Part shown: positions 1,889-17,455 of the stretch, one piece after another
Layout: each line of letters starts with the position of its first letter
How positions within the stretch are numbered: the stretch's first letter is position 1
Assembly: GCF_003334405.1 (NCBI RefSeq)
Contig: NZ_QOWM01000012.1
Length of the DNA: 64,000 nt
DNA from: Escherichia coli
GTDB taxonomy: Bacteria > Pseudomonadota > Gammaproteobacteria > Enterobacterales > Enterobacteriaceae
Reading direction: 5' to 3' (one strand)
Translations under genes and position numbers: made by a program
Notes under the pieces: model-generated
Told to the model about the DNA's origin: nothing
The model's input: only the letters and a program-made list of their open reading frames with translations
The model's database searches: none

Positions 1889-1904
1889 GGCAAAAGGCGT
1901 GCCA
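1889..1904 (-). promoter_or_regulatory. sigma54 (-24/-12) promoter upstream of lafB
   Basis: Minus strand reads TGGCACG-cctt-TTGCC (plus-strand ttggcaaaaggcgtgccaa), matching the TGGCACG-N4-TTGCW consensus, about 30 bp upstream of the lafB ATG. Confidence 0.6.
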
Positions 1905-2040
1905 ATAATTTTTATGTGAATAATCAATAGATTGAAAAATGGGCGGAAAGGCCATTTCCGGTCTGGTGGAAATACGCCTGCCGCAGAAAGAACAACACCG
2001 CCCGCAGGCGGTGTTGAGACTGATGACAAACGCAACACTG

Positions 2041-2140
2041 CCTGATGCGCTGCGCTTATCAGGCCTACAAGGTTTCTGCAATATATTGAATTTGCAATAT
2101 TTTGTAGGCCGGATAAGGCGTTCACGCCGCATCCGGCAAG
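2041..2140. repeat. REP/BIME element pair between lafB and lafA
   Basis: cctgatgcgctgcgcttatcaggcctac ... gtaggccggataaggcgttcacgccgcatccggca, the palindromic REP consensus. Confidence 0.8.
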
Positions 2141-2147
2141 TCCGCCA

Positions 2148-3062
2148 TTACTGCAGCAGGCTGGAAACCATGCTGGACATGCTGTTGGACTGTTTCAGCA
2201 TGGTGATGCCGGTCTGCATCAGCACCTGCTGTTTGGTCATATTGGACGCTTCCGTAGCGTAGTCGGTATCCATGATGTTACCGATAGCAACTTCGGTGTT
2301 GTCCTGCATACTGGTCAGGTTATTAGCCGTGTCGTTCAGACGGTTGATAGACGCACCCAGCTTGGACTGGATCTGCGAAACATCATCCATCGCGGTAGAA
2401 ATGCTGGTGATCATCTGGTTAGCCGAGCCAGACGCAGTCAGTTCAGTACCGCCAGAAACGCCTGCGGTGCCTGTGGTGTCTGCCTGATCCGCACTGAAGG
2501 AGTTGCTGATAGCAGAAAGGTCAGTCACCAGCGTGTTCAGTTGGCTAGAGATGTTCACGGTCATGGTGTCGGAAGATTCCGCGCCCACCTGGAAAGTTAC
2601 CGCGCTCTGGAACAGGCCGTCAGTACCGGTGTTGCTGGTGCCGGAAACACCGAACAGGTTGGTGCCGCCGTAGGTGGTGTTTTGCAGCATGTCAGACATC
2701 TGCTGGCCCAGTTCGTCGTATTCGTCCTGCATCGCCTGCAGATCGTCGTCGCTGTAGGTGCCGTTCGCTGCCTGAGTTGACAGGTCTTTCATACGACCCA
2801 GCACGTCAGACATTTCGTCGAACATGCTGTCGGCGGTTTGCAGCATCGCGGTGGCATCATTGATGTTGCTCAGCGCAACATCCATACCGCTGGACTGTGC
2901 TGTCAGACGGTTAGCAATTTGTTTGCCTGCGGCGTCATCGGCAGAAGAGTTAATCCGGTTACCTGTCGCCAGGCGTTCCATAGATGTAGACAGAGAAGAG
3001 CTGCTTTTGCTGATTGCATTAACGGCGGCCATTGAGGCGTTATTGGTGTTAATAGATAACAT
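2148..3062 (-). CDS. lafA: Lateral-type flagellin (short flagellin without large D2/D3 domains)
   Basis: Starts MLSINTNNASMAAVN... at ATG 3062 behind an AAGGAG RBS; conserved flagellin N and C termini (..QVLMQTGITMLKQSNSMSSMVSSLLQ); the track ORF start at 3128 is an upstream in-frame extension. Confidence 0.9.
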   Translation of the reverse strand: MLSINTNNASMAAVNAISKSSSSLSTSMERLATGNRINSSADDAAGKQIANRLTAQSSGMDVALSNINDATAMLQTADSMFDEMSDVLGRMKDLSTQAANGTYSDDDLQAMQDEYDELGQQMSDMLQNTTYGGTNLFGVSGTSNTGTDGLFQSAVTFQVGAESSDTMTVNISSQLNTLVTDLSAISNSFSADQADTTGTAGVSGGTELTASGSANQMITSISTAMDDVSQIQSKLGASINRLNDTANNLTSMQDNTEVAIGNIMDTDYATEASNMTKQQVLMQTGITMLKQSNSMSSMVSSLLQ

Positions 3063-3107
3063 GATACTGCTCCTTGGGATTAATCGTTTTCGTTTCGATA
3101 CCCTGTA

Positions 3108-3133
3108 AAAACGACACCTCGGGAGCAAACTTA
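3108..3133 (-). promoter_or_regulatory. Candidate sigma28-like (class III) promoter for lafA
   Basis: Minus strand TAAGTTT-N11-GTCGTTTT versus the FliA consensus TAAAGTTT-N11-GCCGATAA: good -35, partial -10 (4/8). Confidence 0.3.
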
Positions 3134-3496
3134 AAACCGCCGTTAAAAAAATTTCACTGCGGTTTATCTGATGCCACTTTTAGCTAAAAAAAGCAGAGTT
3201 TAAATTCAGATAAAAAGATTATTAGCAATATCTGCCACATGGCCAGGTATCAAAATATGTCTTTATCAAACGCTTGATATAGTTAAGATTACCATCAATT
3301 AACGCGTTTTCTTCTCAATGTACTGATGCCAAAATTTACATTGCGTTGCAAATAGTACACATTTGGCTATTGTACCTGTCCTGTCATTTCGTTACATTTC
3401 CACGCCATATAGTGATTAAGAATAATCCTATTACCATAAAATATTAATTATCACGCAGAAAAATCATCTTCTCAGGGACGTATAAGACTGTGCTTT

Positions 3497-4390
3497 ATGC
3501 AAAGCACTATCAGGAAACATTTATCCCTTGCTAAGGTAAACTCAACTATGAGTATTATTATCAACAACTGGCGGATGGACCCGTCGCTTAATGCCTTAAT
3601 ACATTGCGAAACGGGTGAAACACGTCGTCTCGGCGAATACCATTTTATTTTGCTGGAAACATTAGCAAAAAATGCCGATGTGGTTTTATCGCGATCTTAT
3701 TTATGTGCCGAAGTATGGAAGAACCGCATTGTCGGCGGTAACAGCCTGCCGACGGCGATACATGCATTACGCGTTGCTATCGACGATGATGGCAAACAAC
3801 AGAACATTATTAAAACCATCCCGAAAAAAGGTTACCTGTGCAATAAAGAGTATGTGTCTTTGCCGGAGTCATCGCCTGCGGAAGCGCTGATTATTACCAA
3901 CCAGGTACAGGAAACTGTGCCAGGAGAGATATCTTCGACAACCCTGCCTGTGCCTGTTAGAAAAAAACATAAAGGACTGATGGGGTTAGCGTTGACCGCG
4001 GCTGTTATATTTATTGGCTCGACCGTGGGGTATTCACACTTGAAAAGTACACCTGACGCCCCGCAACTGGTAAAAGAGTCAATTAACAGCCCAAGAATAA
4101 AAATATTTCACCTTAGTTCTGGAAAAGAAAATAATTCCGCACCGTTACTGTCACAAACCCTCGCACCAGGAAAAGACAAACTCGATAATTTATTGTCAGC
4201 GCATAATATGACAATGACAACCTATTATAAATATGTTCGTAACCGACTGGAGAGTGATATTGTTCTGCGCAACCAGTGCAACGGTAGCTGGCAATTAACC
4301 TTTAATGTGGATGAGTGGCAGAATAGCGATATTAATAGCGCGATGTATCAGAATTTAGAGAAGTTGTTAAATACTGTGCAGAAGTGCTGA
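3497..4390 (+). CDS. lafZ: ToxR/CadC-like membrane-anchored transcriptional regulator (OmpR-type winged helix, one TM segment, periplasmic domain)
   Basis: N-terminal region resembles an OmpR/PhoB-type DNA-binding domain (..TIPKKGY); hydrophobic segment GLMGLALTAAVIFIGSTVGY; divergent from lafA; the true start may be the internal Met at 3548. Confidence 0.55.
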   Translation: MQSTIRKHLSLAKVNSTMSIIINNWRMDPSLNALIHCETGETRRLGEYHFILLETLAKNADVVLSRSYLCAEVWKNRIVGGNSLPTAIHALRVAIDDDGKQQNIIKTIPKKGYLCNKEYVSLPESSPAEALIITNQVQETVPGEISSTTLPVPVRKKHKGLMGLALTAAVIFIGSTVGYSHLKSTPDAPQLVKESINSPRIKIFHLSSGKENNSAPLLSQTLAPGKDKLDNLLSAHNMTMTTYYKYVRNRLESDIVLRNQCNGSWQLTFNVDEWQNSDINSAMYQNLEKLLNTVQKC

Positions 4391-4448
4391 TGAGTGCCAA
4401 TATATGCCGGATGCGACGCTAAACGCGTCTTATCCGGCCTACCGATAA

Positions 4449-5426
4449 TTATCCCAATAAACTCCTCACCGTCTGGCTGGAAATTCGCGCCTGACCATTC
4501 ACCGCCTGCAATAACACCTGATAGTTATGATTCGCGCTATCCAACACGCCGCCGAGATTTTCCGACGCCTGCACGGCGTTTTCCGTTTGCGGGAAGCGGG
4601 ACATGCCGTCGATCAACTGGCGGGCTTTTTCCTGCTGCACCGCCATTTGCGCGCGCTGCTGATTAATGTTTTCTAACATCTGGGAAATCCCTGCCCCGCC
4701 CTGTTGCAGGCTTTGCGCTAAACGCTCGGCCTGCGACGGTTCGGCAAAGGTTTTTAGCGGCATAAACGCCGACTTATCACCATCGGTGCGCACGCTTAAG
4801 GTGCTTTCAATGTTGGGCCACTGCTTTTCGGTGGTGGAGAAGCTGATGCCGTCCGCTTGCTGATGCAGTTGCACACCCACGCGGCGCAGGGCGTTGGTCA
4901 GCCGCGTCTGATACTGCGCGGCGCTGTCATCCTCAGACAGCATCACCGCCGAAAGCTGAGTCTGCCGCCCGTCAGAGACGCTGAACATGCGCGTTCCCGG
5001 CGTGGGGTTGTGTACGAGATTCGCCAGATCCGGCGAGTGAAAAGTCACCCGCGCCTCGCCCTGCAACACTGGCTGCAACTGGCGGTCTACCGCACCGCCG
5101 GAAAGCGCGGTGCGTTTGTCCAGCATCTGCATCAGCGCCGTACTCTGCGCCTGCCCGCCCTTACGCTGGCTGTGACGATAATCGAGCAACTGCTGCTCCA
5201 GTTGCCCGAGGTAGTGATCCGCCTGCTGCAACGTGGTGAGCTGGTCGTTAAGCTGCACGCTGTAACGCTGCGGGCGAGTGGTAATCAGCGGCGAGGCCGG
5301 ATATTCACTCGCCGTCGCCGGGAGTTTTTGCCGCACCGCCTGAGTGGGCGCAACGGTTGACGACGATACCGCAGCGCTATGCGCGCTGCCGGTGGCGAGT
5401 GACGAAGAAGTAAGTCCGACCTGCAT
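4449..5426 (-). CDS. lafW: Flag-2 protein of uncertain function (LafW-like, possible hook-associated/axial protein)
   Basis: 325-aa ORF directly downstream of lfgL; Gln/Ser-rich with a flagellar axial-protein-like C terminus; naming by position in the cluster. Confidence 0.45.
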   Translation of the reverse strand: MQVGLTSSSLATGSAHSAAVSSSTVAPTQAVRQKLPATASEYPASPLITTRPQRYSVQLNDQLTTLQQADHYLGQLEQQLLDYRHSQRKGGQAQSTALMQMLDKRTALSGGAVDRQLQPVLQGEARVTFHSPDLANLVHNPTPGTRMFSVSDGRQTQLSAVMLSEDDSAAQYQTRLTNALRRVGVQLHQQADGISFSTTEKQWPNIESTLSVRTDGDKSAFMPLKTFAEPSQAERLAQSLQQGGAGISQMLENINQQRAQMAVQQEKARQLIDGMSRFPQTENAVQASENLGGVLDSANHNYQVLLQAVNGQARISSQTVRSLLG

Positions 5427-5442
5427 ACGGTTCCTGAAAGAG

Positions 5443-6372
5443 TTAGAGAACGCTGAACAAATTCAACTCACTCACTTTCGAGTAAGTCTTGAGAGTAGCT
5501 TCCATTGCCACTTCCAGTCCGGTAAAGGTGATCGACGCCGGGCCGTAATCGAGATCCTGTAAAGAACCAATCAACTCATCATTAGAGGTAGAAATATCGG
5601 TCTGCGCATCGCTCAGCATCGACATGGTGTTCTGCGTCTCGCCAAGCGACGCAATTGAGGCGTTGAGATCGTCCGAAGCGGTATCCACCACATCAACGGC
5701 GTTCTGAATATCGCTCTGCACCTGCGGATCTGCCGGGTCAACGTTGGGGGCTTGCAACTCCTGAGAGAGCGAATTGAGCGTGTTGAGCACATCTAAATTG
5801 CTACCGAAGAAATCGCTCGCCGCCACGTTGGTATCCACTTCCACGCCGTTCGAAACGGTGGTCTGGCGGTGGTCGCTGTTGCCCTGATAGCTGTAGCTAT
5901 CGGTCACGCCGTCGCCGTCATCGTCCACCGCCACAATCGGCGGCTGATCGTTGATAGTGCCGCCAAACACGTAGTGCCCGTCTTCGTCCTGATAGTTCAG
6001 CGCCGCGACCATTGATTCGGTGAGCGACTCAATATCCTGCCCGAGACTTGCGAGCGAATCGGCGGTATTGGTGCCGTTCGCTGCTTCCAGCAGGTCGTCA
6101 CGCACCGCCAGCAGGCTGTTGTTGACGCCATCGAGAATTGATTCCTGCTGGCTTAACCCCGCCGACGCGGAGTCGATATTGCTCTGATACTGCTCAATCG
6201 CCGACTGCTGGCGGTTTAACTGGGTAATGCGCGTGGCGGCGATCGGGTCATCGGACGGCTGCAAAATCTGCTTGCCGGTTGCCATCTGCTCGACCACATG
6301 CGCCAGATCGCCGGAGAGATCATTAAAACTTTGCGTCATCGAGACGTAGGTTTGTTGGGTGGTTACTCGCAT
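5443..6372 (-). CDS. lfgL: Flagellar hook-associated protein 3 (FlgL-like)
   Basis: FlgL/flagellin-like N terminus (MRVTTQQTYVSMTQSFNDL...) and position after the FlgK-like gene; the track ORF start at 6396 is an in-frame extension. Confidence 0.8.
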   Translation of the reverse strand: MRVTTQQTYVSMTQSFNDLSGDLAHVVEQMATGKQILQPSDDPIAATRITQLNRQQSAIEQYQSNIDSASAGLSQQESILDGVNNSLLAVRDDLLEAANGTNTADSLASLGQDIESLTESMVAALNYQDEDGHYVFGGTINDQPPIVAVDDDGDGVTDSYSYQGNSDHRQTTVSNGVEVDTNVAASDFFGSNLDVLNTLNSLSQELQAPNVDPADPQVQSDIQNAVDVVDTASDDLNASIASLGETQNTMSMLSDAQTDISTSNDELIGSLQDLDYGPASITFTGLEVAMEATLKTYSKVSELNLFSVL

Positions 6373-6386
6373 TTTCGCGCTCCCGC

Positions 6387-7763
6387 TTAGCTGCACATTT
6401 CCAGCACCGAATCGAAAATCTCGGCCCCGGCGGAAATGACTTTCAGATTGGCTTCATAAATTTGTTGATAGGTGATCAGGTTAACCGCCTCTTCGTCCAT
6501 GCTGACGCCGCTGACGCTGCTCTGCTGGTTTTGCGCTGCGGAATAGACATTGGACGCGGCATCGACTTCCGTCTGGTTTTGCTGGCTGTAAATGCCGATA
6601 TTGCTGATGATTGACGAGCACGCCTGCCCGACCGTCACACTGCCAAGATTGGCAATTTCCAGCGGTTCGGTGGAGATGTTGATCAGCGCCTGCAGGTTGT
6701 CGCTGTTACCGCTTTCGTCCGGCGAACTGGAAAACGCCAGCTCATCGGCGGTGATATCCGGGTTAACGGTCAGTGGGCCATCGGCATTGCTGGCGTCATA
6801 AATAAACAGCGGCTCGCCGGGGTTACCGTTGAGATCGTAGCCCTGCGCCAGCTGGTTGTTGACCGCATCGGCAAACTGCGAGGCCATGCTGTTGATGGTG
6901 TCGGTCAACGGCGTCAGCACATCGTTTTGATAATCAAACAGTGCGCCTAATGAACCTCCAGTGTCGGTGGTCATCGTCGAGGTGGTGCCAGCGAAGGTCA
7001 GCGACATGGTCGGCGTGCCGTCGGCGTTGGTTTCCAGCGCGATGGTCGAGCTTTGTTGCCCGCTCACCAGCGGCTGACCGTTTTTCAGGGTGACGTTGTA
7101 GTTGCCCTGGTCGTCGATATTGACCTGCACTTCCATCATCCCGCTCAGTTCTTCCACCATCTGATCGCGGGCGTCGTACAGCGCAGAGGCGTTATCACCG
7201 TTGGCTTCGGCCTGAGCAATTTGCTGGTTATAGCTGGCGATACCGCTGGTGAGCGTGTTGATTTGCGACACCATCGCCTGCTGCTGGCTGATGATTTCCG
7301 TGCTTTGCGAGTCGACGTAATCGAGCGTGTTATCAATACGCAACGACAGCGCCCCGGCTTCGCTGATCACCTGCTCGCGCAGGGCGGAATCATCGGGGCT
7401 GGTGGTCGCTTCGTTAAGGGCGGCGAAGAAGTTATCGAAGCCGCCGCTCAGGCTGCTGTTATCGTCGCTTAGTACCGCTTCCAGTTGGCTGAGATACCCC
7501 TGCTGGGTGCTGTAATAGCCGTAATCGCTGGCGGCATACCACACCTGATTCACCTGATACTGGTTGGAGACGCGGCGAATGCTGTCCACCTGTACGCCGT
7601 TACCGGCGCTGTTCGGCGAACCGCCGCTGGCACCGATGGTGCTGATCTCCGCCACCTGGCGAGTGTAGCCAGTGATCATGGCGTTAGCGGTGTTTTGCGC
7701 CGTGACGTTCAGCTCCACCTGCGCGGTTGATGCGCCGCTGTAGCCGATGTTAATCATGTCCAT
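6387..7763 (-). CDS. lfgK: Flagellar hook-associated protein 1 (FlgK-like)
   Basis: 458-aa ORF with FlgK-like N terminus (MDMINIGYSGASTAQVELNVTAQNTANA) and C terminus. Confidence 0.85.
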   Translation of the reverse strand: MDMINIGYSGASTAQVELNVTAQNTANAMITGYTRQVAEISTIGASGGSPNSAGNGVQVDSIRRVSNQYQVNQVWYAASDYGYYSTQQGYLSQLEAVLSDDNSSLSGGFDNFFAALNEATTSPDDSALREQVISEAGALSLRIDNTLDYVDSQSTEIISQQQAMVSQINTLTSGIASYNQQIAQAEANGDNASALYDARDQMVEELSGMMEVQVNIDDQGNYNVTLKNGQPLVSGQQSSTIALETNADGTPTMSLTFAGTTSTMTTDTGGSLGALFDYQNDVLTPLTDTINSMASQFADAVNNQLAQGYDLNGNPGEPLFIYDASNADGPLTVNPDITADELAFSSSPDESGNSDNLQALINISTEPLEIANLGSVTVGQACSSIISNIGIYSQQNQTEVDAASNVYSAAQNQQSSVSGVSMDEEAVNLITYQQIYEANLKVISAGAEIFDSVLEMCS

Positions 7764-7834
7764 GTTGGATCCTTACCGGTAAATCGTGCCGGTTAAAAGC
7801 GGCGTGAAGATGGGGATTCTTAAATTCCGTAAAC

Positions 7835-8060
<226 letters not shown>

Positions 8061-8066
8061 GGAGCC

Positions 8067-8366
8067 TCACCTATGCTTCGGCGACAACTGCTTCACAATC
8101 ATCGCCGCAATCCCAATCCCGTGCTGCTGCGCCAGGGTGTTACACAACTCATCGTCATAAAATCCCTGCATCATGCGCACCGAATCGCTGTTAAATGGGT
8201 TATCTTTCGAATCAAACAACTCGTTGGTTTTACGCATCTCTTTCAGCATGTTGCGTAAAAAAATCGCCTCAAACTGTTCGGCGGCCTGCCTGATATCATT
8301 GGCCTGAACCTTCGGCCCCATTAACGCATCGCTGCCGTCAATCCCGCCGCTGCCGTTAACTTTCAT
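8067..8366 (-). CDS. lfgJ: FlgJ-like rod-assembly protein, rod-binding domain only (no muramidase domain)
   Basis: 99-aa ORF resembling the FlgJ N-terminal rod-binding domain (..AAEQFEAIFLRNMLKEMRKT..); stop overlaps the lfgI start. Confidence 0.7.
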   Translation of the reverse strand: MKVNGSGGIDGSDALMGPKVQANDIRQAAEQFEAIFLRNMLKEMRKTNELFDSKDNPFNSDSVRMMQGFYDDELCNTLAQQHGIGIAAMIVKQLSPKHR

Positions 8367-9481
8367 CAGATCACCTCCAGGTCGGCATCCAGCGCGCCCG
8401 CTTCATGCAGCGCCTGCAAAATTGACATAATGTCATCCGGCGTCGCACCTAAACTGTTCAACGCATTGACCAGCGTTTTCAGGCTGCTCGACTCCGGCAA
8501 ACTCACCACGCCCGGACGGGCATGATTCACCGCGATATTGCTCTGCGGCGTTACCGCTGTGCGCCCGCCCGCAAAGGCATTCGGCTGGCTGACGTTGCTG
8601 GTTTCGTTAATCGAAACGGTCAAACTGCCGTGCGACACCGCCGCCGCGTGCAGCGCAACGCCATCGCCCATCACCACCGTGCCGGTACGCGAGTTAAACA
8701 CCACGCGAGCGCGGATTTTCTCTGCCTGCACCTGCACATCGTCCAGTTGCGACATAAACGCCACCCGCGCACCGGGGCTGGTAGGCGCACGCACGGTAAC
8801 GTTGGTGGAACTCTGTGCGGTGGCAATGCCACCAAACGAGGCGTTAATCGCCGCCGCAATGTTGTTAGCGTCTTTAAACGACGGACGTTTCAGGTTGAGG
8901 GTGATAGTGTCGCCCATCTGAAAATCGCTGGGGATCTCGCGCTCCACCGTTGCGCCGTTAGGAATTAACCCGGCGGTTGGAGTATTAACCGTTACGCTGG
9001 AGCCACTAGCCCCGGTGGCGTTCATCCCGCCGACCACCACGCTGCCCTGCGCCAGGGCATACACTTCACCATCTGCGCCGTGCAACTGCGTCAACAGCAA
9101 GGTGCCGCCGCGAATACTTTTCGCATCGCCAATCGACGAGACGGTGACATCAATGGTCTGCCCGCGCGAGTACATCGGCGGCAACGTGGCGCTCACCGCC
9201 ACTGCGGCGACGTTTTTCACCTTCGGGTCGATTTTATTCGGCAACTGCACGCCAAACTGGCGCAGCATATTGGTGATGGTCTGGTTGGTGAATTTGACCT
9301 GGTTTTTATCACCGGTACCGTCGAGGCCGACCACCAGGCTGTAGCCGACCAGTTGGTTTTCACGCACGCCCTGTACGTTAACCAGTGACTCCAGCGATTG
9401 CGCCAGCACCACGCCGGGTAGCGCCAGGCTTACGGCTACGACCACTGTTTTTATCCAGTTTTGCATTGCACTCTCCGGCAT
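8366..9481 (-). CDS. lfgI: Flagellar P-ring protein (FlgI-like)
   Basis: 371-aa ORF with signal peptide and FlgI-like sequence throughout. Confidence 0.9.
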
Positions 9482-10146
9482 TAAATCGGGAACAGAGGAT
9501 GGTTAAACAACCGCGTCAGCCAGCCTGCGGCATTGGCGTCGCTTAACGCGCCACGTCCGGCATAGGAGATACGGGCGTCGGCGATCCGCTGGGAGGAAAC
9601 CGAGTTGTCGTTCTGGATGTCGTCGGCGCGCACCAGGCCGCTTAAGCGGATGTACTCATCGCCCTGGTTGAGGGTGAGCCATTTCTCGCCGCGAATTTCC
9701 AGGATGCCGTTGGGCTGCACCGCATGGACGGAAACGGTGATCTCCCCGCGCAGGCTGTTCTGCTGCTGGGAAGTGGCGCTGCCGTCAAAGTCGCGGTTGG
9801 CGTCGATAGAGCCGGAAAGCTTATCTTTAGTGTGACCAAAAATGGTCGGTGCGCCGATATCGACGGTGTTGCTTTTGCCGAAGTTGGTTTTCGCCTGTTT
9901 GCTCGACTGGGTGGATTCTTCGAGGATCACCGTCAGGATATCGCCCACGCGATAAGCCCGCCGATCGGCGGTCAGCGACCAGTTGTAGCCAGTTTCAAAT
10001 ACACCGCCAGCACGCCCGTCTGCCGGAGGCGGTGCTTCGGTTTTCGGTGGCGCAAAGTATGCGTCGTCTTTTTTGACCAGAATGGCCTGCGATTCACACC
10101 CGCTAAGCAGGGGAAGCAGTGCCACCAGCCAGAGATAATTTTTCAC
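9481..10146 (-). CDS. lfgH: Flagellar L-ring lipoprotein (FlgH-like)
   Basis: 221-aa ORF with lipoprotein signal (LLSGC) and FlgH-like sequence. Confidence 0.9.
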
Positions 10147-10189
10147 GTTCTGCCTGTTTTAAATACAGTGAGTTATGTGCTCTTGTAGG

Positions 10190-10340
10190 TCGGATAAGAC
10201 GCGTCAGCGTCGCATCCGACAACAAGCGTGTGCACATTGCCCGATGCGCGTGTGGACGGTTTATAAACGGTTAATCAACCAAACTATGTGCACCGTCCAC
10301 TCGCTTATCGTGCCTACAAGGGCGTCAGCGTCGCATCCGA
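10190..10340. repeat. REP-like palindromic elements between lfgH and lfgG
   Basis: gtaggtcggataagacgcgtcagcgtcgcatccgac ... gcctacaagggcgtcagcgtcgcatccgac. Confidence 0.6.
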
Positions 10341-10349
10341 CATTTCGCC

Positions 10350-11135
10350 TTACAGCGTCTGGCTGATGTACTGCAACATATCGTCCGCCGCCGACACCAT
10401 TTTGGCGTTCATCTCGTACGCGCGTTGCACCGTAATCATCGCCACCATTTCGTTGACGATATCCACGTTCGAGCCTTCCAGTGCGTTGTCCTGCAAAGTG
10501 CCAAGCCCATCTTCGCCCGGCACACCTTCTGTCGGCTGACCGCTGGCGGCGGTTTCCAGATACAGGTTGTCGCCCTCGGCGGAAAGCCCCGCCGGGTTGG
10601 CGAAGTTAACCAGCGTCAGTTGCCCTAACTCGGTCGCGTCGCTGTCGCCGGGTAAGATCGCCGTCACTGTGCCATCCTCACCAAACGCGACGTTGGTGGC
10701 CCCTGCCGGAACGTCGATTTCCGGCTGCAACGGCAAGCCCTGCGAGTTGGTCAGCACGCCGTCGGCGTTCACCTGCAAGTTGCCATCGCGGATATAGGCG
10801 ATATCGCCGTTAGCCTTTTGCACCTGCAAAAATCCCTGCCCCATAATGGCGACATTCATCGCGTTGTCGGTGGTTTCGACGTTGCCTTCGGTGAAGGTTT
10901 TCTGGGTACCGACAATGCGCACGCCGCTACCGAATTGCAGCCCGGTCGGCATGATGTTGTTCTGGTCGAGCATCGCGCCCGGCGCTTCCTGGGTCTGGTA
11001 GAACAGATCCTGAAACATCACCCGGTCGCGCTTGAAGCCGGTGGTATTAACGTTGGCGATGTTGTTGGCAATCGCGCTCATTTCAGCATCCTGCGCCGAG
11101 AGGCCGGTTTTGCTGATCCATAATGCTGCGTTCAT
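10350..11135 (-). CDS. lfgG: Flagellar distal rod protein (FlgG-like)
   Basis: 261-aa ORF with FlgG-like N terminus (..WISKTGLSAQDAEMSAIANNIANVNTTGFK) and C terminus. Confidence 0.9.
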   Translation of the reverse strand: MNAALWISKTGLSAQDAEMSAIANNIANVNTTGFKRDRVMFQDLFYQTQEAPGAMLDQNNIMPTGLQFGSGVRIVGTQKTFTEGNVETTDNAMNVAIMGQGFLQVQKANGDIAYIRDGNLQVNADGVLTNSQGLPLQPEIDVPAGATNVAFGEDGTVTAILPGDSDATELGQLTLVNFANPAGLSAEGDNLYLETAASGQPTEGVPGEDGLGTLQDNALEGSNVDIVNEMVAMITVQRAYEMNAKMVSAADDMLQYISQTL

Positions 11136-11164
11136 GGTGGTAAATTCCGTGTTATTTTTGGGCC

Positions 11165-11212
11165 GCGGTTGCCGGATGCGGCGTGAACGCCTTATCCGGC
11201 CTACGATGTGCG
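11165..11212. repeat. REP element between lfgG and lfgF
   Basis: gccggatgcggcgtgaacgccttatccggcctac. Confidence 0.8.
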
Positions 11213-11213
11213 G

Positions 11214-11951
11214 TTACGAGCCGCGCAATAAGCGGTTGCCCGCGTCGCTGATATCTTCGGCGGTTTTCATCATCTTGATCTGCGCTTCGAACTGGCGGTT
11301 CATGGCGATGGACGACATCATTTCGCTCACCGCCGAGACGTTGCTGCCCTCGAGAAAACCGCCGCTGACTTTGATATTTTCATCGCGCTGGGCCGGAACG
11401 CCGTCCGCCGTTATCAACATCCCTTCAGGATTTTTCGCCAGGTTAGCGACCGGGATATCCACCAGCTTCAGGCGGTCGATATCCATCGTCGCGGTCACGT
11501 CGCCGTCATCGGGCGTCACCGACAGCGTGCCGTCGCTGCCAAACGAAGCAATGGCATTCGGCGGCAGAATGATCGGGCCGTTATCCCCCAGCACCAGATT
11601 GCCGTCGATGGCCAGTTGCCCCTGGTCGTCCTGCTGAATGTTGCCGTTGCGGGTATACACTTCGTTGCCGTTTTTATCCTGCACCGCAATGTAACCCGCG
11701 CCCTGAATCGCCACGTCCAGCGGGCGTTCGGTTTTCTCCGCTACACCCGTGCTGTCGTTCACGCCGCTGGCCCCTTCCTGCGCCATATAGCGCGTGTCGA
11801 AGCCGCCGCCTTTCACCTTGTCGTTGGTTGCCATTGCCATATCGGCGCGAAAACCGTTGGTGTTGACGTTCGCCAGGTTGTTGGCGCTAATCTGCTGCTC
11901 GTACAGGGTCTGAGAAGCACCGCTCAGGGCGGTATAAATCAGGCGGTCCAT
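11214..11951 (-). CDS. lfgF: Flagellar proximal rod protein (FlgF-like)
   Basis: 245-aa ORF with rod-protein N-terminal motif (..ANNLANVNTNGFR). Confidence 0.9.
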   Translation of the reverse strand: MDRLIYTALSGASQTLYEQQISANNLANVNTNGFRADMAMATNDKVKGGGFDTRYMAQEGASGVNDSTGVAEKTERPLDVAIQGAGYIAVQDKNGNEVYTRNGNIQQDDQGQLAIDGNLVLGDNGPIILPPNAIASFGSDGTLSVTPDDGDVTATMDIDRLKLVDIPVANLAKNPEGMLITADGVPAQRDENIKVSGGFLEGSNVSAVSEMMSSIAMNRQFEAQIKMMKTAEDISDAGNRLLRGS

Positions 11952-13153
11952 TACATTGCCTGGAACAGCGCGTCATCGAGCTGCGTGCTGGTAGCGATAA
12001 CTTTGGTGTTGGCCTGATAGTTACGCTGGGCGGTCATCAGGTTGACCAGTTCGCTGGTGATATCGACGTTAGAGCTTTCGAGCACGCCGGACGACAGCGT
12101 ACCGCAGGTACCGGAGCCGGGAACGCCAATCAGCGGGGTACCGGATTCCCCGGTTTGTACCCACGCGGTGCCGCTTACCGCTTCGAGTCCGTTTTCATTC
12201 GGGAAAGTCGCCAGCACCACCTGGCCCTGCAACATGCGCTCGCCGTTGCTGTAGGTAGCGTAAACTTTGCCATCGTCATCGACCTGCACACCGTTCTGAG
12301 TCGCGGAAGCGTAGCCGTTGGCGGCGTTGGTGGTGACCGAGAAGTCCGAGCCGTATTGCGTACAGGTCGAGTAATCGACGGTTAAGTCGATGGGTGCGGC
12401 GGCGTCGGTTTGAAATTCAATGGTCTGCGGCGTGGTTGGCGAGGTCAGCTTCCCGGTGTTCGGGTCGAAGGTTAACGTCGTCGCCGGAACACCAGTCTGC
12501 TGCTGACCGTCGAAGGTGTACTGCACTTCCCAGGTGTTATCGCTGGTTTTGGTGAAGTACTGGCATACCGAATGTTCGTTGCCTAATGAGTCATATACCG
12601 TGGTGGTGTAGCTGTCGGTGTACGAGCTGCTGTTGGTCGCATCAAACGGTACGGTTGTACGGTCGATAGCATCGTCGCTGGCATCGAAGTTGGCGGTAAA
12701 AGTCAGGCTGCTGCTGGCCTGCGCCGGGATATTGCCGGTTTTGATCTGGATATCGGTGACCGTACCGGTTTGCAGAGTGCCAGTGTCATCGACCGGATAG
12801 CCCTGCAAATAAGCGCCCGAGGCGTTGACGATATAGCCGTTTTTGTCGGTTTCAAACGATCCGGCGCGGGTGTAGGAAATGTTGCCCGCGCTGTCGCAGG
12901 TAACAAAAAAGCCGTCGTCGTTAATCGCCAGATCCAGCGCGTTACCGGTGGAGACCAGCGAACCGCCGCGCGAAATGCTCTGCGCCGTACCCGCCACGCT
13001 GACGCCCATCGCCTGACTTCCGGCATACATAGCTGAAAACTGAGTGGTCATCGACTTATAGCCCACCGTTCCGGCGTTGGCGATGTTGTTACTGATCCCG
13101 TCCAGTTGTTCGTTAACGGCATTCAGCCCCGTCGCGGCAATTTCATAACTCAT
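11951..13153 (-). CDS. lfgE: Flagellar hook protein (FlgE-like)
   Basis: 400-aa ORF with FlgE-like termini. Confidence 0.9.
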   Translation of the reverse strand: MSYEIAATGLNAVNEQLDGISNNIANAGTVGYKSMTTQFSAMYAGSQAMGVSVAGTAQSISRGGSLVSTGNALDLAINDDGFFVTCDSAGNISYTRAGSFETDKNGYIVNASGAYLQGYPVDDTGTLQTGTVTDIQIKTGNIPAQASSSLTFTANFDASDDAIDRTTVPFDATNSSSYTDSYTTTVYDSLGNEHSVCQYFTKTSDNTWEVQYTFDGQQQTGVPATTLTFDPNTGKLTSPTTPQTIEFQTDAAAPIDLTVDYSTCTQYGSDFSVTTNAANGYASATQNGVQVDDDGKVYATYSNGERMLQGQVVLATFPNENGLEAVSGTAWVQTGESGTPLIGVPGSGTCGTLSSGVLESSNVDITSELVNLMTAQRNYQANTKVIATSTQLDDALFQAM

Positions 13154-13199
13154 TGTGTCTTCCTGTTAATTCAAATTTTGACAGCGTGCCCGTTGTTTT

Positions 13200-13290
13200 G
13201 CCGGATGCGGCGTGAACACCTTATCCGGCCTACAAAACAATGCAGTTTCATGTAGGCCTGATAAGCGAAGCGCATCAGGCAATTTGGCAC
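13200..13290. repeat. REP element pair between lfgE and lfgD
   Basis: ccggatgcggcgtgaacaccttatccggcctac ... gtaggcctgataagcgaagcgcatcaggc. Confidence 0.8.
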
Positions 13291-13296
13291 CGGACA

Positions 13297-14010
13297 TCAC
13301 GCCACATCACTGTCGGCATCGGGTACGCCAAACTGGCTAATCATGGTGAACGGCACTTCGCCCACGCCTGCAACGTTGAGCACCGGAGAGCTGCCGTCGA
13401 GCGGGATGCGCACATCTTCTACTTCGCCGGAGACTTCAATCGGCACCTCTTCTTCGCCGGTGTTGGTCACCACCGAAACGTCGTAATCGCCCGGCGGGAT
13501 GCCGTAATCGGCGGGATCCACCGAGAAATCCACCTGGCCTGGCCCGACGGACGAACTACCTTGCGGGATCAGCGAGACGGTGTAGTCATCGCCTGCGGCA
13601 TCGGTAAAGTGGAGATCGGCGGTGGTACAGGCGTCGTCCAGCGTGGCGCGACCGTTAATGGTCTGGTCGCTGACCTGCAAGGCGGTGGTCTGCACCATAA
13701 TGTCGTCGCCCACCAGGTTGCCGAGCGCCATCACCTGAATGTTGCTCATCAGCACCGCGTTGGTGTTGGCCTGCACGCTCATCTCTTCCATCATCGCCAC
13801 CTGCGCCATCGACGAAAGCTGGTCGATATATTCGGTGGCGTCGGTTGGGTCGGTCGGGTCCTGGTTTTGGATCTCGGCGACAAACAGCGTCAGGAAGGTA
13901 TCGACGGGCGAGCTATCGCTGCTGCTTGTCGTGTCGCTGGCCGCCACATTATTGCTTTCCGCCGTGGCGGTCGGCTGCGGCGATTGCGCATTCAGCGCCA
14001 GGGTATTCAT
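13297..14010 (-). CDS. lfgD: Flagellar hook capping/assembly protein (FlgD-like)
   Basis: 237-aa ORF with FlgD-like N-terminal region, between FlgC and FlgE homologues. Confidence 0.85.
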   Translation of the reverse strand: MNTLALNAQSPQPTATAESNNVAASDTTSSSDSSPVDTFLTLFVAEIQNQDPTDPTDATEYIDQLSSMAQVAMMEEMSVQANTNAVLMSNIQVMALGNLVGDDIMVQTTALQVSDQTINGRATLDDACTTADLHFTDAAGDDYTVSLIPQGSSSVGPGQVDFSVDPADYGIPPGDYDVSVVTNTGEEEVPIEVSGEVEDVRIPLDGSSPVLNVAGVGEVPFTMISQFGVPDADSDVA

Positions 14011-14441
14011 CAGGCTTCTCCCAGTTTCAGCAAACTTTGCTGCATACTTTTCACGTTGTTGAGCACATCGACATTGGTTTCGAAATCGCGCGAAGCCGAC
14101 ATCATGTCCGCCATCTGTTCCACCACGTTGACGTCGGGATACCAGACATCCCCGTTAGCATCCGCCAGAGGTGAATGCGGTTCATAGCGTTTCACCGCCC
14201 CGCCGGTTTGCAGCACGTCCTGCACCTGCACGCTGGCAGCGTCAATGGCATGACGATGTGTACCCGCCAGCAAGCTGTGGTGATACACCGCCGCAAACAC
14301 CGGGCTGCGCGCTTTATACGCCTGCGCCTCGCTACCGGCAGGCGCCTCGGCGTTCGCCAGGTTACTGGCGACGGTATTCAGGCGAATGGTCTGTGCCGTC
14401 ATCGCCGAGCCGGAAATCTGATAGATATCAGTAAATGACAT
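14010..14441 (-). CDS. lfgC: Flagellar proximal rod protein (FlgC-like)
   Basis: 143-aa ORF, MSFTDIYQISGSAMTAQTIRLNTVASNLANA.., FlgC-like; reading frame intact. Confidence 0.9.
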   Translation of the reverse strand: MSFTDIYQISGSAMTAQTIRLNTVASNLANAEAPAGSEAQAYKARSPVFAAVYHHSLLAGTHRHAIDAASVQVQDVLQTGGAVKRYEPHSPLADANGDVWYPDVNVVEQMADMMSASRDFETNVDVLNNVKSMQQSLLKLGEA

Positions 14442-14443
14442 GC

Positions 14444-14779
14444 TTATTTCCCTTCAATGGCCTCTCTGATGCCGCTGATTTGCAGATTCAGAAAGGTCAG
14501 ACTGCTTTGATAATCCATACTATTTTGTGAAAACCGCGCCTGTTCGCTGTTCAGCTCCACGGTGTTGCCATCTTCCGACGGCTGCATCGGCACGCGGTAC
14601 TGGACATCCACCGCCGCGTTATTTGCCCGTTGCATCTCCCTGGCAAAATCAATATCTTTAGCCTTGAAATTTGGCGTATCGACGTTCGCCAGATTCGCAG
14701 TCAGTAGCTCGGTCCTCTCAAGACGTAACTTCACTGCCTGCGGATGTACTCCCAATGCCTGTTGAAAACTGATCCCCAT
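14444..14779 (-). CDS. lfgB: Flagellar proximal rod protein (FlgB-like)
   Basis: FlgB-like sequence from MGISFQQAL.. (ATG 14779, RBS AGGAGT); the track ORF start at 14809 would place the sigma54 transcription start inside the CDS. Confidence 0.85.
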   Translation of the reverse strand: MGISFQQALGVHPQAVKLRLERTELLTANLANVDTPNFKAKDIDFAREMQRANNAAVDVQYRVPMQPSEDGNTVELNSEQARFSQNSMDYQSSLTFLNLQISGIREAIEGK

Positions 14780-14816
14780 TTCCTGCGTCACTCCTGCTTC
14801 AATCCGCATACGCTAA

Positions 14817-14832
14817 GCAATCGCCGTGCCAT
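14817..14832 (-). promoter_or_regulatory. sigma54 (-24/-12) promoter of the lfgB rod/hook operon
   Basis: Minus strand reads TGGCACG-gcga-TTGCT (plus-strand agcaatcgccgtgcca), an exact match to TGGCACG-N4-TTGCW, about 35 bp upstream of the lfgB ATG and followed by an AGGAGT RBS. Confidence 0.7.
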
Positions 14833-14860
14833 TTTTTAAGTGACTGATGAGAAAGGGTTT

Positions 14861-15598
14861 ATGAGTTTTCAATTTTGCAGGCGGAAGTTTTATTTCCTCC
14901 TGGCGCTGGCCTTACCGGGCTACGCCGCCGTCCACCCCGTGCAGCACAGCGCGCGGGAACAAGTCAACGCCCAGGTGCTGAATGCCGCGAGCCAAAAAAT
15001 TGAATCGCTGGCGCAACAGCGGCAGTGGCATGACTATCACTACACCTTTAAGGTCTACATTCCCTCGCAGATTGCGACCGCCGCGCCCTGTGCGACTACA
15101 CCCGGCGTTACGCTCACTTCGCCTGCGGAAATCGCCCTCAACCGGATGAACTTCACCGTCAGTTGCCCGCAAAGCTGGCAGATGAACGTGGCGGTGCGCC
15201 CGGATGTGCTGGTGCCGGTGGTGATGACAAAGTCACTGGTTGCCCGCGATACGCCGCTCACGGCAAATGATGTGGAGTTGAAGCCCTACAACGTCAGCGC
15301 CCAGCGCAGGGAGGTGTTGATGGAACTCGATGACGCGATTGGTTTCAGCAGTAAACACGCGCTGCAACCAGGCAGGCCAATCACCAAAGAAGAGCTGGTG
15401 TCTCCGGTGCTGGTCGGGCGCGATCAGCCGGTGATGATTGTTTACCAGAGCGCGGGGATCACCGCCTCGATGCCCGGCGTGGCGCTGAAAAATGGTCGCA
15501 AAGGCGAGATGGTGAAAGTGCGTAACGCCAGCAGCCAGCGGGTCATCAGCGCGATGGTGGCGGAAAGCGGCGTGGTGACAACGGTAAGCGCGGAGTAA
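14861..15598 (+). CDS. lfgA: Flagellar P-ring assembly chaperone (FlgA-like)
   Basis: Signal-peptide-bearing ORF divergent from lfgB; ATG 14861 has a better RBS than the GTG at 14840; the C-terminal region resembles FlgA. Confidence 0.7.
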   Translation: MSFQFCRRKFYFLLALALPGYAAVHPVQHSAREQVNAQVLNAASQKIESLAQQRQWHDYHYTFKVYIPSQIATAAPCATTPGVTLTSPAEIALNRMNFTVSCPQSWQMNVAVRPDVLVPVVMTKSLVARDTPLTANDVELKPYNVSAQRREVLMELDDAIGFSSKHALQPGRPITKEELVSPVLVGRDQPVMIVYQSAGITASMPGVALKNGRKGEMVKVRNASSQRVISAMVAESGVVTTVSAE

Positions 15599-15612
15599 TT
15601 TGCGCTGGCGAT

Positions 15613-15641
15613 TAAAGTTTTGCCGCCTGTTAACCGCTTTA
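15613..15641 (+). promoter_or_regulatory. Candidate sigma28-like promoter for lfgM-lfgN
   Basis: Exact -35 TAAAGTTT at 15613-15620, then a partial -10 (ACCGCTTT, spacer 12) versus GCCGATAA; 38 bp upstream of the lfgM ATG. Confidence 0.35.
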
Positions 15642-15678
15642 CCGGAGTAACCCACCCAAATACCGAGACGAGGTTGCG

Positions 15679-15957
15679 ATGAAAATCACCCCGACTATGC
15701 CAGGCAATCGCCCAACAACCACAACGGCAGGCTCCAGCCAGCCGCGCAAAACCACGGCGACCACCACCACGACGCTGAGCGCCGACGACATTACTCAGGC
15801 GGGATTGCAGTCTGCCCAGCAAACGCTGAACGACCAGCAAGAGAGCGATATCGACAGCAACAAAGTGGCGCAAGTGCAGGCGATGCTGGCGTCCGGCAGC
15901 CCGCAAGTGGACACTGAACAGTTAGCCAGCGACATGCTGAGTTTTTTCCAGAACTAA
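15679..15957 (+). CDS. lfgM: Anti-sigma-28 factor (FlgM-like)
   Basis: 92-aa ORF with Thr-rich N terminus and FlgM-like C-terminal helix region; position before the FlgN-like gene. Confidence 0.7.
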   Translation: MKITPTMPGNRPTTTTAGSSQPRKTTATTTTTLSADDITQAGLQSAQQTLNDQQESDIDSNKVAQVQAMLASGSPQVDTEQLASDMLSFFQN

Positions 15958-15969
15958 GAGGCCGATGAA

Positions 15970-16398
15970 GTGAGTATCCGGTTACAACAGGTGAAGGCGT
16001 TGTTGCAGGGAATTCGTGACGACGACGCGCTGTATGATTCCCTGCGCGAACGTCTCCAGCGCCAGCGGATCTGCATGATTCGCCGCGCCAGCGAGGAGTT
16101 GCTGGCGGTAAACGATGAGATTACGCATCACTATGAGCAGTTACACAGCCATAGCCATCAGCGGCATAGCCTGCTGAAAATGCTCGGTGTTAGCGTAAAT
16201 CGTGACGGTCTGGCGCAGGTGTTTGCCTGGCTTCCGGCGGTACAAAAAGCGGCAGCACAACAATTGTGGCAACACCTTGAGCAAAAAGCGGAACGCTGCA
16301 AAGCCTACAACGATAAAAACGGCGAGTTGTTGATTCGCCAGTATGAATTTATTCAGTCGTTTTTAGGCAGCGAAGCAGATTTTCTGTATCAGGAATAA
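15970..16398 (+). CDS. lfgN: Flagellar export chaperone (FlgN-like)
   Basis: 142-aa helical ORF, GTG start, directly downstream of the FlgM-like gene. Confidence 0.65.
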   Translation: MSIRLQQVKALLQGIRDDDALYDSLRERLQRQRICMIRRASEELLAVNDEITHHYEQLHSHSHQRHSLLKMLGVSVNRDGLAQVFAWLPAVQKAAAQQLWQHLEQKAERCKAYNDKNGELLIRQYEFIQSFLGSEADFLYQE

Positions 16399-16525
16399 CG
16401 ACAATACCTTCCCCCATCGCGGAAACGGATTTTCCGCCTGATTGCCAATCCCTTGTTTTTGACTACAAAAAATCCCGGCACGCTTATTGCACATCCTGCA
16501 CAGCATTAAAGACTGGAAGCCACCT

Positions 16526-17455
16526 ATGAGTTTTATTGAATGTTACGAACCGGAATACGTGCGCAATTTTATGACGCAATACCCCGGTTCGCCTTTATAC
16601 GTCCGCAAGGTGTGGAAAAACGAGATTCGCCTGAGCCTGATGCTGACAGAGCCAGAAAGCTGCGAAGCGATGCTCAACGATGTCAGGGCCTTTGATTTAC
16701 AGCTCACCTACCGTCCTGTGGAAGAAAATGCCGCAGAGCTTTCCGCGCGCGATGCGATAGTAAACCAGGTGATTTTGAGTACCCTCACGCTCCGTGATTT
16801 AACACCAGAACTGTCATTGTATGCCGTCGGTATCCTGCTCTCCCGCGCCAGTAAAATGCCGGGCAGAGACGGAGATATTCTTGCCCGTTTGACGACGCTG
16901 CCGCAGGCGCTGGCCGATCATGCGAAAAAAGGCATCCTACAGGCACAGTTCGCCCAGCTGCCGCCCGTGCCACAGCTGGTGCGTCACCTGGCCACGTTAC
17001 TCGGGAGTTTTACGTTTGACTGGTCGATTTTGCCGGAAAGCCCGCGCAAAACTTCGCTGCCGTTGCAGATGCCTTTGCTGACGCTGCATGACGCTAACAG
17101 CGAAGCCCTGTTACAACAGCAGCTTCAGACGCAGTGGCAAACCACCTGGCAACAGCATTTTGCCACCGCGCCCTGGATGATGCGTAACTGGCTGATTTAC
17201 CGCGTTTACCACGATGTGATTGGGCAGACTGACGGGGCGGATTATTTCCCGCTGGTGTGCGATTTTTATCTCCTCCGCACGTTAATCAGTTTATGGACGC
17301 TGGATGGTTCTTCGCTGCGGCAGGAGGATATTTTCGCCCTCTTTGCCATGTTTGAACGCTGGCGAGCCAGTGAAAATGCGCTGTTGGTTCGCCAGCAAAT
17401 TCAGTCGTTATGTGCCGCCGACCCGCTGCTTTCAGCGTTTTCGCTGCTAACGTGA
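16526..17455 (+). CDS. Hypothetical protein in the flagellar modification island
   Basis: 309-aa ORF from MSFIECYEPEYVRNF.. (RBS GGAAG); Gln/Leu-rich, no family recognised by eye; codirectional with lfgN and the glycosyltransferase gene. Confidence 0.5.
   Translation: MSFIECYEPEYVRNFMTQYPGSPLYVRKVWKNEIRLSLMLTEPESCEAMLNDVRAFDLQLTYRPVEENAAELSARDAIVNQVILSTLTLRDLTPELSLYAVGILLSRASKMPGRDGDILARLTTLPQALADHAKKGILQAQFAQLPPVPQLVRHLATLLGSFTFDWSILPESPRKTSLPLQMPLLTLHDANSEALLQQQLQTQWQTTWQQHFATAPWMMRNWLIYRVYHDVIGQTDGADYFPLVCDFYLLRTLISLWTLDGSSLRQEDIFALFAMFERWRASENALLVRQQIQSLCAADPLLSAFSLLT

Follow-up and report, generated by a model that had tools for sequence, protein, structure and literature searches.

Conserved sigma-28-like promoter motifs with a distinct -10 box upstream of late operons in the Flag-2 lateral flagellar locus of Escherichia coli and other Enterobacterales

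Lateral flagellar systems of Vibrio and Aeromonas are expressed in a hierarchy in which LafK and sigma-54 act first, followed by sigma-28 and then by the late genes (PMC3658858; PMC4481668). In Plesiomonas shigelloides, RNA sequencing (RNA-seq) of a fliA_L mutant revealed that FliA_L controls fliC_L, flgMN_L, flgKL_L and fliD..lafTU (PMC11242183). Sigma-28 promoters at lateral flagellar late genes are already established, and the present report concerns their putative counterparts in the Flag-2 (lateral flagella) locus of Escherichia coli. The locus is contained, according to its RefSeq annotation, in a 64,000-nucleotide stretch of contig NZ_QOWM01000012.1 (hereafter the window). The gene set and the tier logic of this locus are those of the lateral systems of Vibrio parahaemolyticus, Aeromonas hydrophila and Plesiomonas. 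A survey of Flag-2 in Enterobacterales makes no mention of promoters (PMC6993521), and a literature search for a published lateral sigma-28 consensus gave nothing usable. The other close comparison is flag-1 of E. coli and Salmonella, in which FliA reads class 3 promoters of the form TAAAGTTT-N11-GCCGATAA. The two systems share a TAAAG-like -35, a G..CG at the upstream edge of the -10, the siting of promoters before flagellin, flgMN and flgKL genes, a sigma factor of the FliA/WhiG family and an anti-sigma factor of the FlgM type encoded downstream of one of the promoters. They differ in the upper tier, which is sigma-54/LafK in Flag-2 and FlhDC/sigma-70 in flag-1.

An earlier note on this DNA had proposed that lafA (flagellin) and lfgM-lfgN share a sigma-28-like promoter, driven by the lateral sigma-28 LafS, with a -10 that only weakly matches GCCGATAA. 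The elements on which this proposal rested are present. Upstream of lfgM, TAAAGTTT occurs at 15613-15620 on the plus strand as the sole exact copy in the window, a count that is not significant alone (1.39 expected by chance). Upstream of lafA, TAAGTTT at 3127-3133 on the minus strand forms part of TTAAGTTT. The -35 8-mers are followed by T-rich, CG-containing -10 boxes, namely GTCGTTTT at lafA (11 bases downstream) and ACCGCTTT at lfgM (12 bases downstream). The canonical sigma-28 consensus is a poor model for these sites and was rejected as such. A scan for TAAAGTTT-N11-GCCGATAA with up to three mismatches recovered neither of them and gave a single match, in a coding region near 31.9 kb. 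Under relaxed scoring the two sites match at 11-12 of 16 positions, a score shared by about 220 other places in 79 kb of sequence (the window plus its left flank). Within this one sequence, the lafA and lfgM sites are therefore not above chance.

In comparisons of orthologous loci, the motif at lafA and lfgM is highly significant through its conservation. A scan with LfgI, taking one genome per species, gave 76 loci, 32 of which (L002-L032 and L061) are Flag-2 loci of Enterobacterales that show synteny; they extend from Escherichia to Rahnella, Rosenbergiella and Tatumella. In 33 syntenic loci of this kind, the motif reads cTTAAG(T/A)(T/A)T, a 12-base (sometimes 11-base) spacer and G(T/C)CG(C/T)TTT, and at lafA and lfgM it takes the form T(T/A)AAGTTT(t), 12 bases (11 at Escherichia lafA) and (G/A)(T/C)CG(C/T)TTT(T)A. 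It stands upstream of every lafA and every lfgM in the loci that have these genes. At both genes, the two blocks keep fixed distances to the start codon, while the sequence of the spacer varies freely between loci; its length is 12 in most instances and 11 at Escherichia lafA and a few other sites. The -35 resembles TAAAGTTT, being T(T/A)AAGTTT at lafA and lfgM (exact at lfgM) and TTAAGAAT at lfgK. In the -10, G or A stands first and T or C second, and the CG is invariant among 27 distinct sites, an invariance that is partly imposed by the search and confirmed by the loci found by the matrix only.

As the training sites were chosen by a regular expression, some column invariance is built into the matrices, and cross-training between the two genes bears on this point. 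With a matrix trained on lafA sites, the lfgM site was the best match in all distinct regions (26/26; p<=0.01 for each when compared with shuffles), and a matrix trained on lfgM sites found the lafA site in 27/27 distinct regions at the same threshold. Loci that fail the seed expression (L017, L021, L024, L029, L030 and L061) were still recovered by the matrix at the homologous place. Thus, the shared promoter proposed in the earlier note is conserved in orthologous loci with diverged spacers and is detected in both directions of training, and its conservation holds across Flag-2 genomes in all 33 syntenic Enterobacterales loci. As regards the -10, the suggestion of a preference different from the canonical one is upheld. 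Its description as a weak match to GCCGATAA is not, since the element is a conserved box in its own right, GYCGYTTT (Y = C or T).

The three top matrix matches in the 79 kb are those of lafA, lfgM and lfgK. The lafA promoter is the best (28.3 bits) and is present in all 27 distinct upstream regions, in most of them about 42-45 nt ahead of the ATG; its -10 GTCGTTTT runs on as ..TTTTTACA to 3104. The lfgM promoter ranks second (26.6 bits), matches the degenerate pattern exactly, and occurs in 26/26 distinct regions, 23-91 nt (mostly 23-54) ahead of the start codon. The lfgK promoter, which was absent from the earlier note, is a third member of the tier. Its site, ATTTAAGAATC-cccatcttca-CGCCGCTTTTAAC, lies 29 nt before the start codon and is the third-best match (18.5 bits) with two mismatches to the degenerate pattern, and cTTAAGAA-N12-GYCGYT occurs at the corresponding place in all 33 lfgK regions. 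No sigma-70-like promoter was found at the lafA, lfgM and lfgK sites. A conserved A about 16 nt downstream of the G of GYCG (taken as -15) marks the likely start site, from which transcription is predicted to start at about 3099-3100 (-) for lafA, 15649 (+) for lfgM and 7787 (-) for lfgK. In the information profile of the lafA alignment, an A/T block of the AAAAATTTTT type is kept at the same position upstream of the -35. A tract of this type is more weakly kept at lfgM, at about 15590-15600 (+), and these tracts could be UP elements or sites for a regulator. The 5' untranslated region of lafA (GTATCGAAACGAAAACGATTAATCCCAAGGAGC, 3063-3099, minus strand) is nearly invariant in Escherichia and Citrobacter, but not in loci further removed; the RNA structure predicted for it does not surpass that of shuffled sequence (z-score 0.09).

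The motif is restricted to these three operons. When the distinct upstream regions of 25 Flag-2 genes are compared, those with a significant motif make up a fraction of 1.00 at lafA, 1.00 at lfgM and 0.79 at lfgK (79% of regions at p<=0.02, with a matrix trained on sites other than those of lfgK). The fraction is about 0 almost throughout for the others, lfgL and lfgC reaching just 0.13 with low scores. The matrix scan across loci found no LafS-type motif upstream of lafB, lafT, lafS, lafZ, lafW, lfgA or lfgB, the low-scoring lfgL regions included no clear site, and none was present in the single lafU region tested. This distribution fits the siting of sigma-28 late promoters, which stand before the flagellin, flgMN and flgKL genes and are absent from hook-basal-body operons. 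An internal promoter before lafF-lafS (TGAAGTTT..GCAGTTTA, with weak matches at -49) was considered and rejected, as it is confined to close relatives and scores about 5 bits.

Hook-basal-body genes appear to be served by another class of promoter. A sigma-54-type promoter before lfgB, TGGCACGGCGATTGCT, is an exact match to TGGCAC-N5-TTGCW, and one before lafB, TGGCACGCCTTTTGCC, has one mismatch; TGGCA(C/T)-N5-TTGC is also found upstream of lafB in other loci. These predicted promoters, which were likewise absent from the earlier note and the second of which heads an operon that includes lafS, define an earlier tier. The three-tier arrangement known from other lateral systems is found here in a lafK product with a sigma-54 interaction domain (RefSeq annotation and family models), in the sigma-54-type promoters at lfgB and lafB, and in the position of lafS within the lafB..lafU gene string. 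No terminator was found between lfgA and lfgM, so that read-through from lfgA is possible. Another sigma-54-like box, CGGCACGCTTATTGCA, lies at 16476-16491 (+), just before a hypothetical open reading frame (16526-17455) and a large glycosyltransferase gene, an arrangement suggesting that the accessory genes in the variable region behind lfgN are part of the LafK/sigma-54 tier.

The -10 box separates the Flag-2 sites from the promoters of FliA. In E. coli K-12, the flag-1 flgM, flgK, fliC, fliD, tar, motA and fliA promoters (7/7) contain xxCGATA(A/T) 11 bases past a box like TAAAGTTT. All seven score at most 12 bits with the Flag-2 matrix, which found nothing above 16.1 bits in 58 kb of flag-1 and chemotaxis DNA. 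The Flag-2 -10 keeps the G and the CG, and the next position is C (17) or T (10) and never A among the 27 distinct sites, followed by TTT. Compared with flag-1, Flag-2 sites thus have a pyrimidine for the -11 A of canonical sigma-28 promoters, a T run for TAA and a spacer that is usually 12 rather than 11. The lafA -10, GTCGTTTT, would become GTCGATAA with a changed -11 base and tail. Koo et al. (2009) reportedly found that R91, D81 and R84 of FliA read the G and the CG of the -10 box. A structure paper from 2026 treats the roles of D81, R84 and R91 in this recognition, defines the canonical box as (-15)GCCGATAA(-8) and identifies -11A as the flipped-out base (PMC12784957).

D81, R84 and R91 are all kept in LafS, which is recognized by FliA/WhiG family models (NF009091, 447 bits against a cut-off of 339; TIGR02479, 202.2 against 189.6) and narrowly misses the narrower FliA model NF005413 (198.8 against 201). 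LafS and FliA differ in the specificity loop (segments compared: LafS RYGLPDEGFAGYA, FliA RYDALQGTAFTTYA), which is RY-GLPDEGFAG-YA with 9 residues in LafS and RY-DALQGTAFTT-YA with 10 residues in FliA, so that the LafS loop is one residue shorter and G replaces D60. The corresponding patterns are RY-G.PD..F and RY-D...G..F. Loop types were classified in 105 representative FliA relatives with a recognizable loop. Ten-residue loops, mostly D-first, occur in 90 of these, and 9-residue loops occur in the other 15, which are the nearest relatives of LafS and include 13 with a G-first loop; a search for LafS homologues listed close Enterobacterales relatives only. From these comparisons we infer that the shorter loop of LafS may account for the pyrimidine and the T run that replace -11A and TAA. 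In extracytoplasmic function (ECF) sigma factors, a variable specificity loop sets the flipped-out -10 base, and the -10 motifs contain CG(T/C). LafS does not belong to the ECF sigma factors; it is of group 3, with a sigma-3 domain and a -35 of the TAAAG type, and the likeness is mechanistic only. A remark bearing on this comparison of loop and flipped -10 base is found in the 2026 structure paper (PMC12784957). LafS-type sigma-28 factors may form a separate specificity class, in which a short G-first loop (RY-G.PD..F) reads a pyrimidine instead of -11A, an idea that we put forward as a tentative one with somewhat less than even chances.

Beyond Enterobacterales, related motifs accompany related loops. 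Betaproteobacterial loci of Comamonas, Aquincola, Ideonella, Craterilacuibacter, Parazoarcus and other genera, whose FlgI is about 60% identical to LfgI, contain TTTAAGT-N~15-GGTCGCC upstream of flgK, flagellin and the flgN region. They share the 9-residue G.PD..F sigma loop with LafS; the -10 tail is GC-rich (GTCGCC), in contrast to the T-rich tail of Flag-2. In the lateral locus of Vibrio campbellii, TTAATC-N14-(G/A)(T/C)CGCCTCT precedes lafA and flgK_L and also occurs about 200 nt ahead of fliD_L, and the LafS-type motif is accompanied by a G-first sigma loop of normal length. The presence of the motif in the betaproteobacterial and Vibrio loci indicates that the -11 pyrimidine is a trait of the lateral/LafS lineage rather than an oddity of E. 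coli. A more distant locus, L048, has the canonical form TCAAGTTC-N11-TCCGATAA. An Aeromonas caviae locus (L082) with weaker similarity to Flag-2 proteins is probably not a lateral cluster and was set aside as uninformative. As to the fliD_L site: In V. campbellii, a sigma-54-like GGCAC-N5-TTGC comes after this last site, ATTAAATCTTT-N10-GGTCGCCTTTTTT (L080, 8120-8153, plus strand). Both promoter types may thus be present at the fliD_L operon, unlike at its Enterobacterales counterpart. In the PLSDB database, NZ_CP050465.1, a 2.06-Mb V. campbellii replicon that is very likely chromosome 2, and NZ_AP026896.1, a chromosome-sized A. caviae replicon of 4.94 Mb, are both filed as plasmids.

Taken together, the lafA, lfgM and lfgK sites are probably class III Flag-2 promoters bound by RNA polymerase containing LafS, a reading in which we have good confidence. 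Judged from the co-variation of box and loop and from the Plesiomonas RNA-seq, LafS rather than FliA is most likely the sigma factor used, as the FliA_L-dependent units fliC_L, flgMN_L and flgKL_L are the same three units that carry the Flag-2 motif. In the proposed mechanism, LafK and sigma-54 would drive lfgB-J and lafB..lafS..lafU, with LafK presumably being the activator at the lfgB and lafB sigma-54 promoters. LafS would be made, yet held inactive by LfgM in analogy to FliA and FlgM, until the completed hook-basal body exports LfgM, whereupon the freed LafS would fire PlafA, PlfgM and PlfgK; these steps are suggested by the FliA/FlgM paradigm and the gene content. The start of transcription would lie about 8 nt past the -10 box, before lafA, lfgMN and lfgK-lfgL-lafW, the last of which is presumed to be the transcription unit of the lfgK promoter. 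A hairpin downstream of lafA would make lafA a single-gene transcript. On the more tentative view of LafS-type factors as a separate specificity class, FliA and LafS, which coexist in Flag-2-bearing E. coli, Citrobacter and related genera, would be insulated at the -10 and would nearly share the -35.

Alternatively, flag-1 FliA could read these sites, alone or together with LafS, and the two systems would then be cross-wired instead of insulated. The nearly canonical -35 (exactly TAAAGTTT at lfgM) speaks for such a reading, as do the retained G and CG of the -10 and the residues reading them, which are common to FliA and LafS. Nevertheless, neither -11 A nor ATAA occurs in any of the 27 distinct sites, although all seven K-12 FliA promoters have these bases. 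The usual spacer is 12, not 11, canonical scoring puts the sites at background level, and the motif follows the LafS-type sigma factor into the betaproteobacterial loci and the Vibrio lateral locus. Because the sites are devoid of a part of the -10 that FliA promoters never lack, recognition by FliA is unlikely.

Still less probable is that the two blocks are operators for a DNA-binding regulator, such as the LafZ-like transmembrane regulator or LafK, instead of sigma elements. The gene lafZ is divergent from lafA over an A/T-rich gap of 485 bp, and the conserved A/T tract just upstream of the -35 would suit an operator. However, the sequence of the blocks, their spacing and their distance from the start codon all correspond to a sigma-28 layout. 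The blocks precede exactly the operons that are sigma-28-dependent in the related system of Plesiomonas and, in the alignment, are neither direct nor inverted repeats of each other. Moreover, activators of the LafK type use sigma-54 promoters, which were found at other operons and not at these sites. Chance resemblance in A/T-rich intergenic DNA, to which the expectation of 1.39 copies of TAAAGTTT and the 11-12/16 scores shared with about 220 other places would point, is already refuted by the fixed positions in every orthologous locus with diverged spacers, by cross-trained detection in 53/53 regions and by the essentially negative upstream regions of 22 other genes.

Several points weigh against assignment of the sites to LafS. 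Many of the loci are closely related, yet the diverged spacers indicate time enough for unconstrained change. Selection of the training sites by a regular expression is a further concern, which is eased by cross-training and by the loci recovered with the matrix only. Of all the sites in the set, those of E. coli depart most from the typical form: the first base of the lfgM -10 is A and not G, the lafA spacer is 11 and not 12, and the lfgK -35 is TTAAGAAT. In Plesiomonas, fliD..lafTU is FliA_L-dependent, whereas the regions upstream of lafB, lafT and lafS in Enterobacterales are without the motif. In the literature searched, no evidence was found of Flag-2 expression or transcription starts in E. 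coli.

These sites in E. coli and other Enterobacterales add new members, that of lfgK among them, to the established class of lateral sigma-28 promoters. The distinct -10 box, and the way in which it varies together with the sigma-2 loop, may represent a new finding or one that is in part on record for Vibrio. The resulting regulatory map of Flag-2 places predicted sigma-54 promoters at the hook-basal-body and lafB operons and three LafS-type promoters before the genes for flagellin, LfgM/LfgN and the hook-associated proteins. The exact boxes and predicted starts are now given and are open to mutation or reporter fusion. Canonical sigma-28 matrices miss these promoters, and the Flag-2 matrix would allow a search for further members of the LafS regulon. 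Should the -10 difference turn out to be a specificity switch governed by the sigma-2 loop, this would account for the ability of a single cell to run two flagellar systems on two sigma-28 paralogues without cross-talk, and the rule that promoter melting involves the reading of -11A would have a counter-example. If LafS is a separate class, FliA and LafS would constitute a natural orthogonal sigma-28 pair with a simple, swappable determinant.

Table 1. Promoter elements and genes of the Flag-2 locus, in window coordinates
Feature	Position	Strand	Basis or detail
lafB	541-1857	-	RefSeq annotation
Sigma-54-type promoter before lafB	1889..1904	-	TGGCACGCCTTTTGCC; one mismatch to TGGCAC-N5-TTGCW
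Terminator-like hairpin after lafA	1993..2016	-	ten-pair stem, 7 G-C pairs, T-rich tail
lafA, lateral flagellin gene	2148..3062	-	NCBIfam NF033376, 667.8 bits against cut-off 440; RefSeq agrees
lafA promoter (predicted)	3104..3136	-	-35 TTAAGTTT 3134-3127, 11-base spacer, -10 GTCGTTTT 3115-3108
A/T tract AAATTTTTTTAA	3143..3154	-	about 10 nt upstream of lafA -35; resembles UP element
lafZ, LafZ-like (transmembrane) regulator gene	3548-4390	+	RefSeq annotation
lfgK-lfgL-lafW, hook-associated proteins	4449..7763	-	RefSeq annotation
lfgK promoter (predicted)	7792..7825	-	-35 TTAAGAAT 7823-7816, 12-base spacer, -10 GCCGCTTT 7803-7796
lfgJ to lfgB	8067-14779	-	RefSeq annotation
Sigma-54-type promoter before lfgB	14816..14831	-	TGGCACGGCGATTGCT; exact TGGCAC-N5-TTGCW match
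lfgA	14861-15598	+	RefSeq annotation
lfgM promoter (predicted)	15611..15644	+	-35 TAAAGTTT 15613-15620, 12-base spacer, -10 ACCGCTTT 15633-15640
lfgM, anti-sigma-28	15679-15957	+	TIGR03824 (FlgM), 45.5 bits against cut-off 40.75; RefSeq agrees
lfgN, chaperone	15970-16398	+	RefSeq annotation

The coordinates of the features are collected in Table 1. Over bases 2000-16500, the window shows 100% identity to E. coli FORC_081, and 829 complete E. coli genomes contain 80% or more of this segment. The gap between lfgJ and lfgK (7840-8060), directly upstream of the lfgK promoter, is full of repetitive extragenic palindromic (REP)/bacterial interspersed mosaic element (BIME) repeats (two copies of gcctgatgcgacgctg.cgcgtcttatcaggcctac plus ggccggataaggcgtttacgccgcatccggc), and these repeats are the reason for about 39 megablast places per E. 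coli genome. The export ATPase gene lfiI (21031-22368, minus strand) is intact in the window. In the otherwise near-identical FORC_081 copy, codon 45 is turned into a premature stop by a G to A change at 22236, and the annotation lists the gene as a pseudogene. The lateral sigma-28 gene lafS lies just to the left of the window (L001, 12542-13258). In some E. coli, the end of lafF contains a one-base frameshift that joins the FliL-like LafF and LafS in a protein of 400 amino acids (..LLVKKWSSSNHQADINMLQDV..; proteins P0001 and P0005), a fusion that was mapped at L001 12542-13745, left of the window, and that would be a membrane-tethered or inactive sigma-28.

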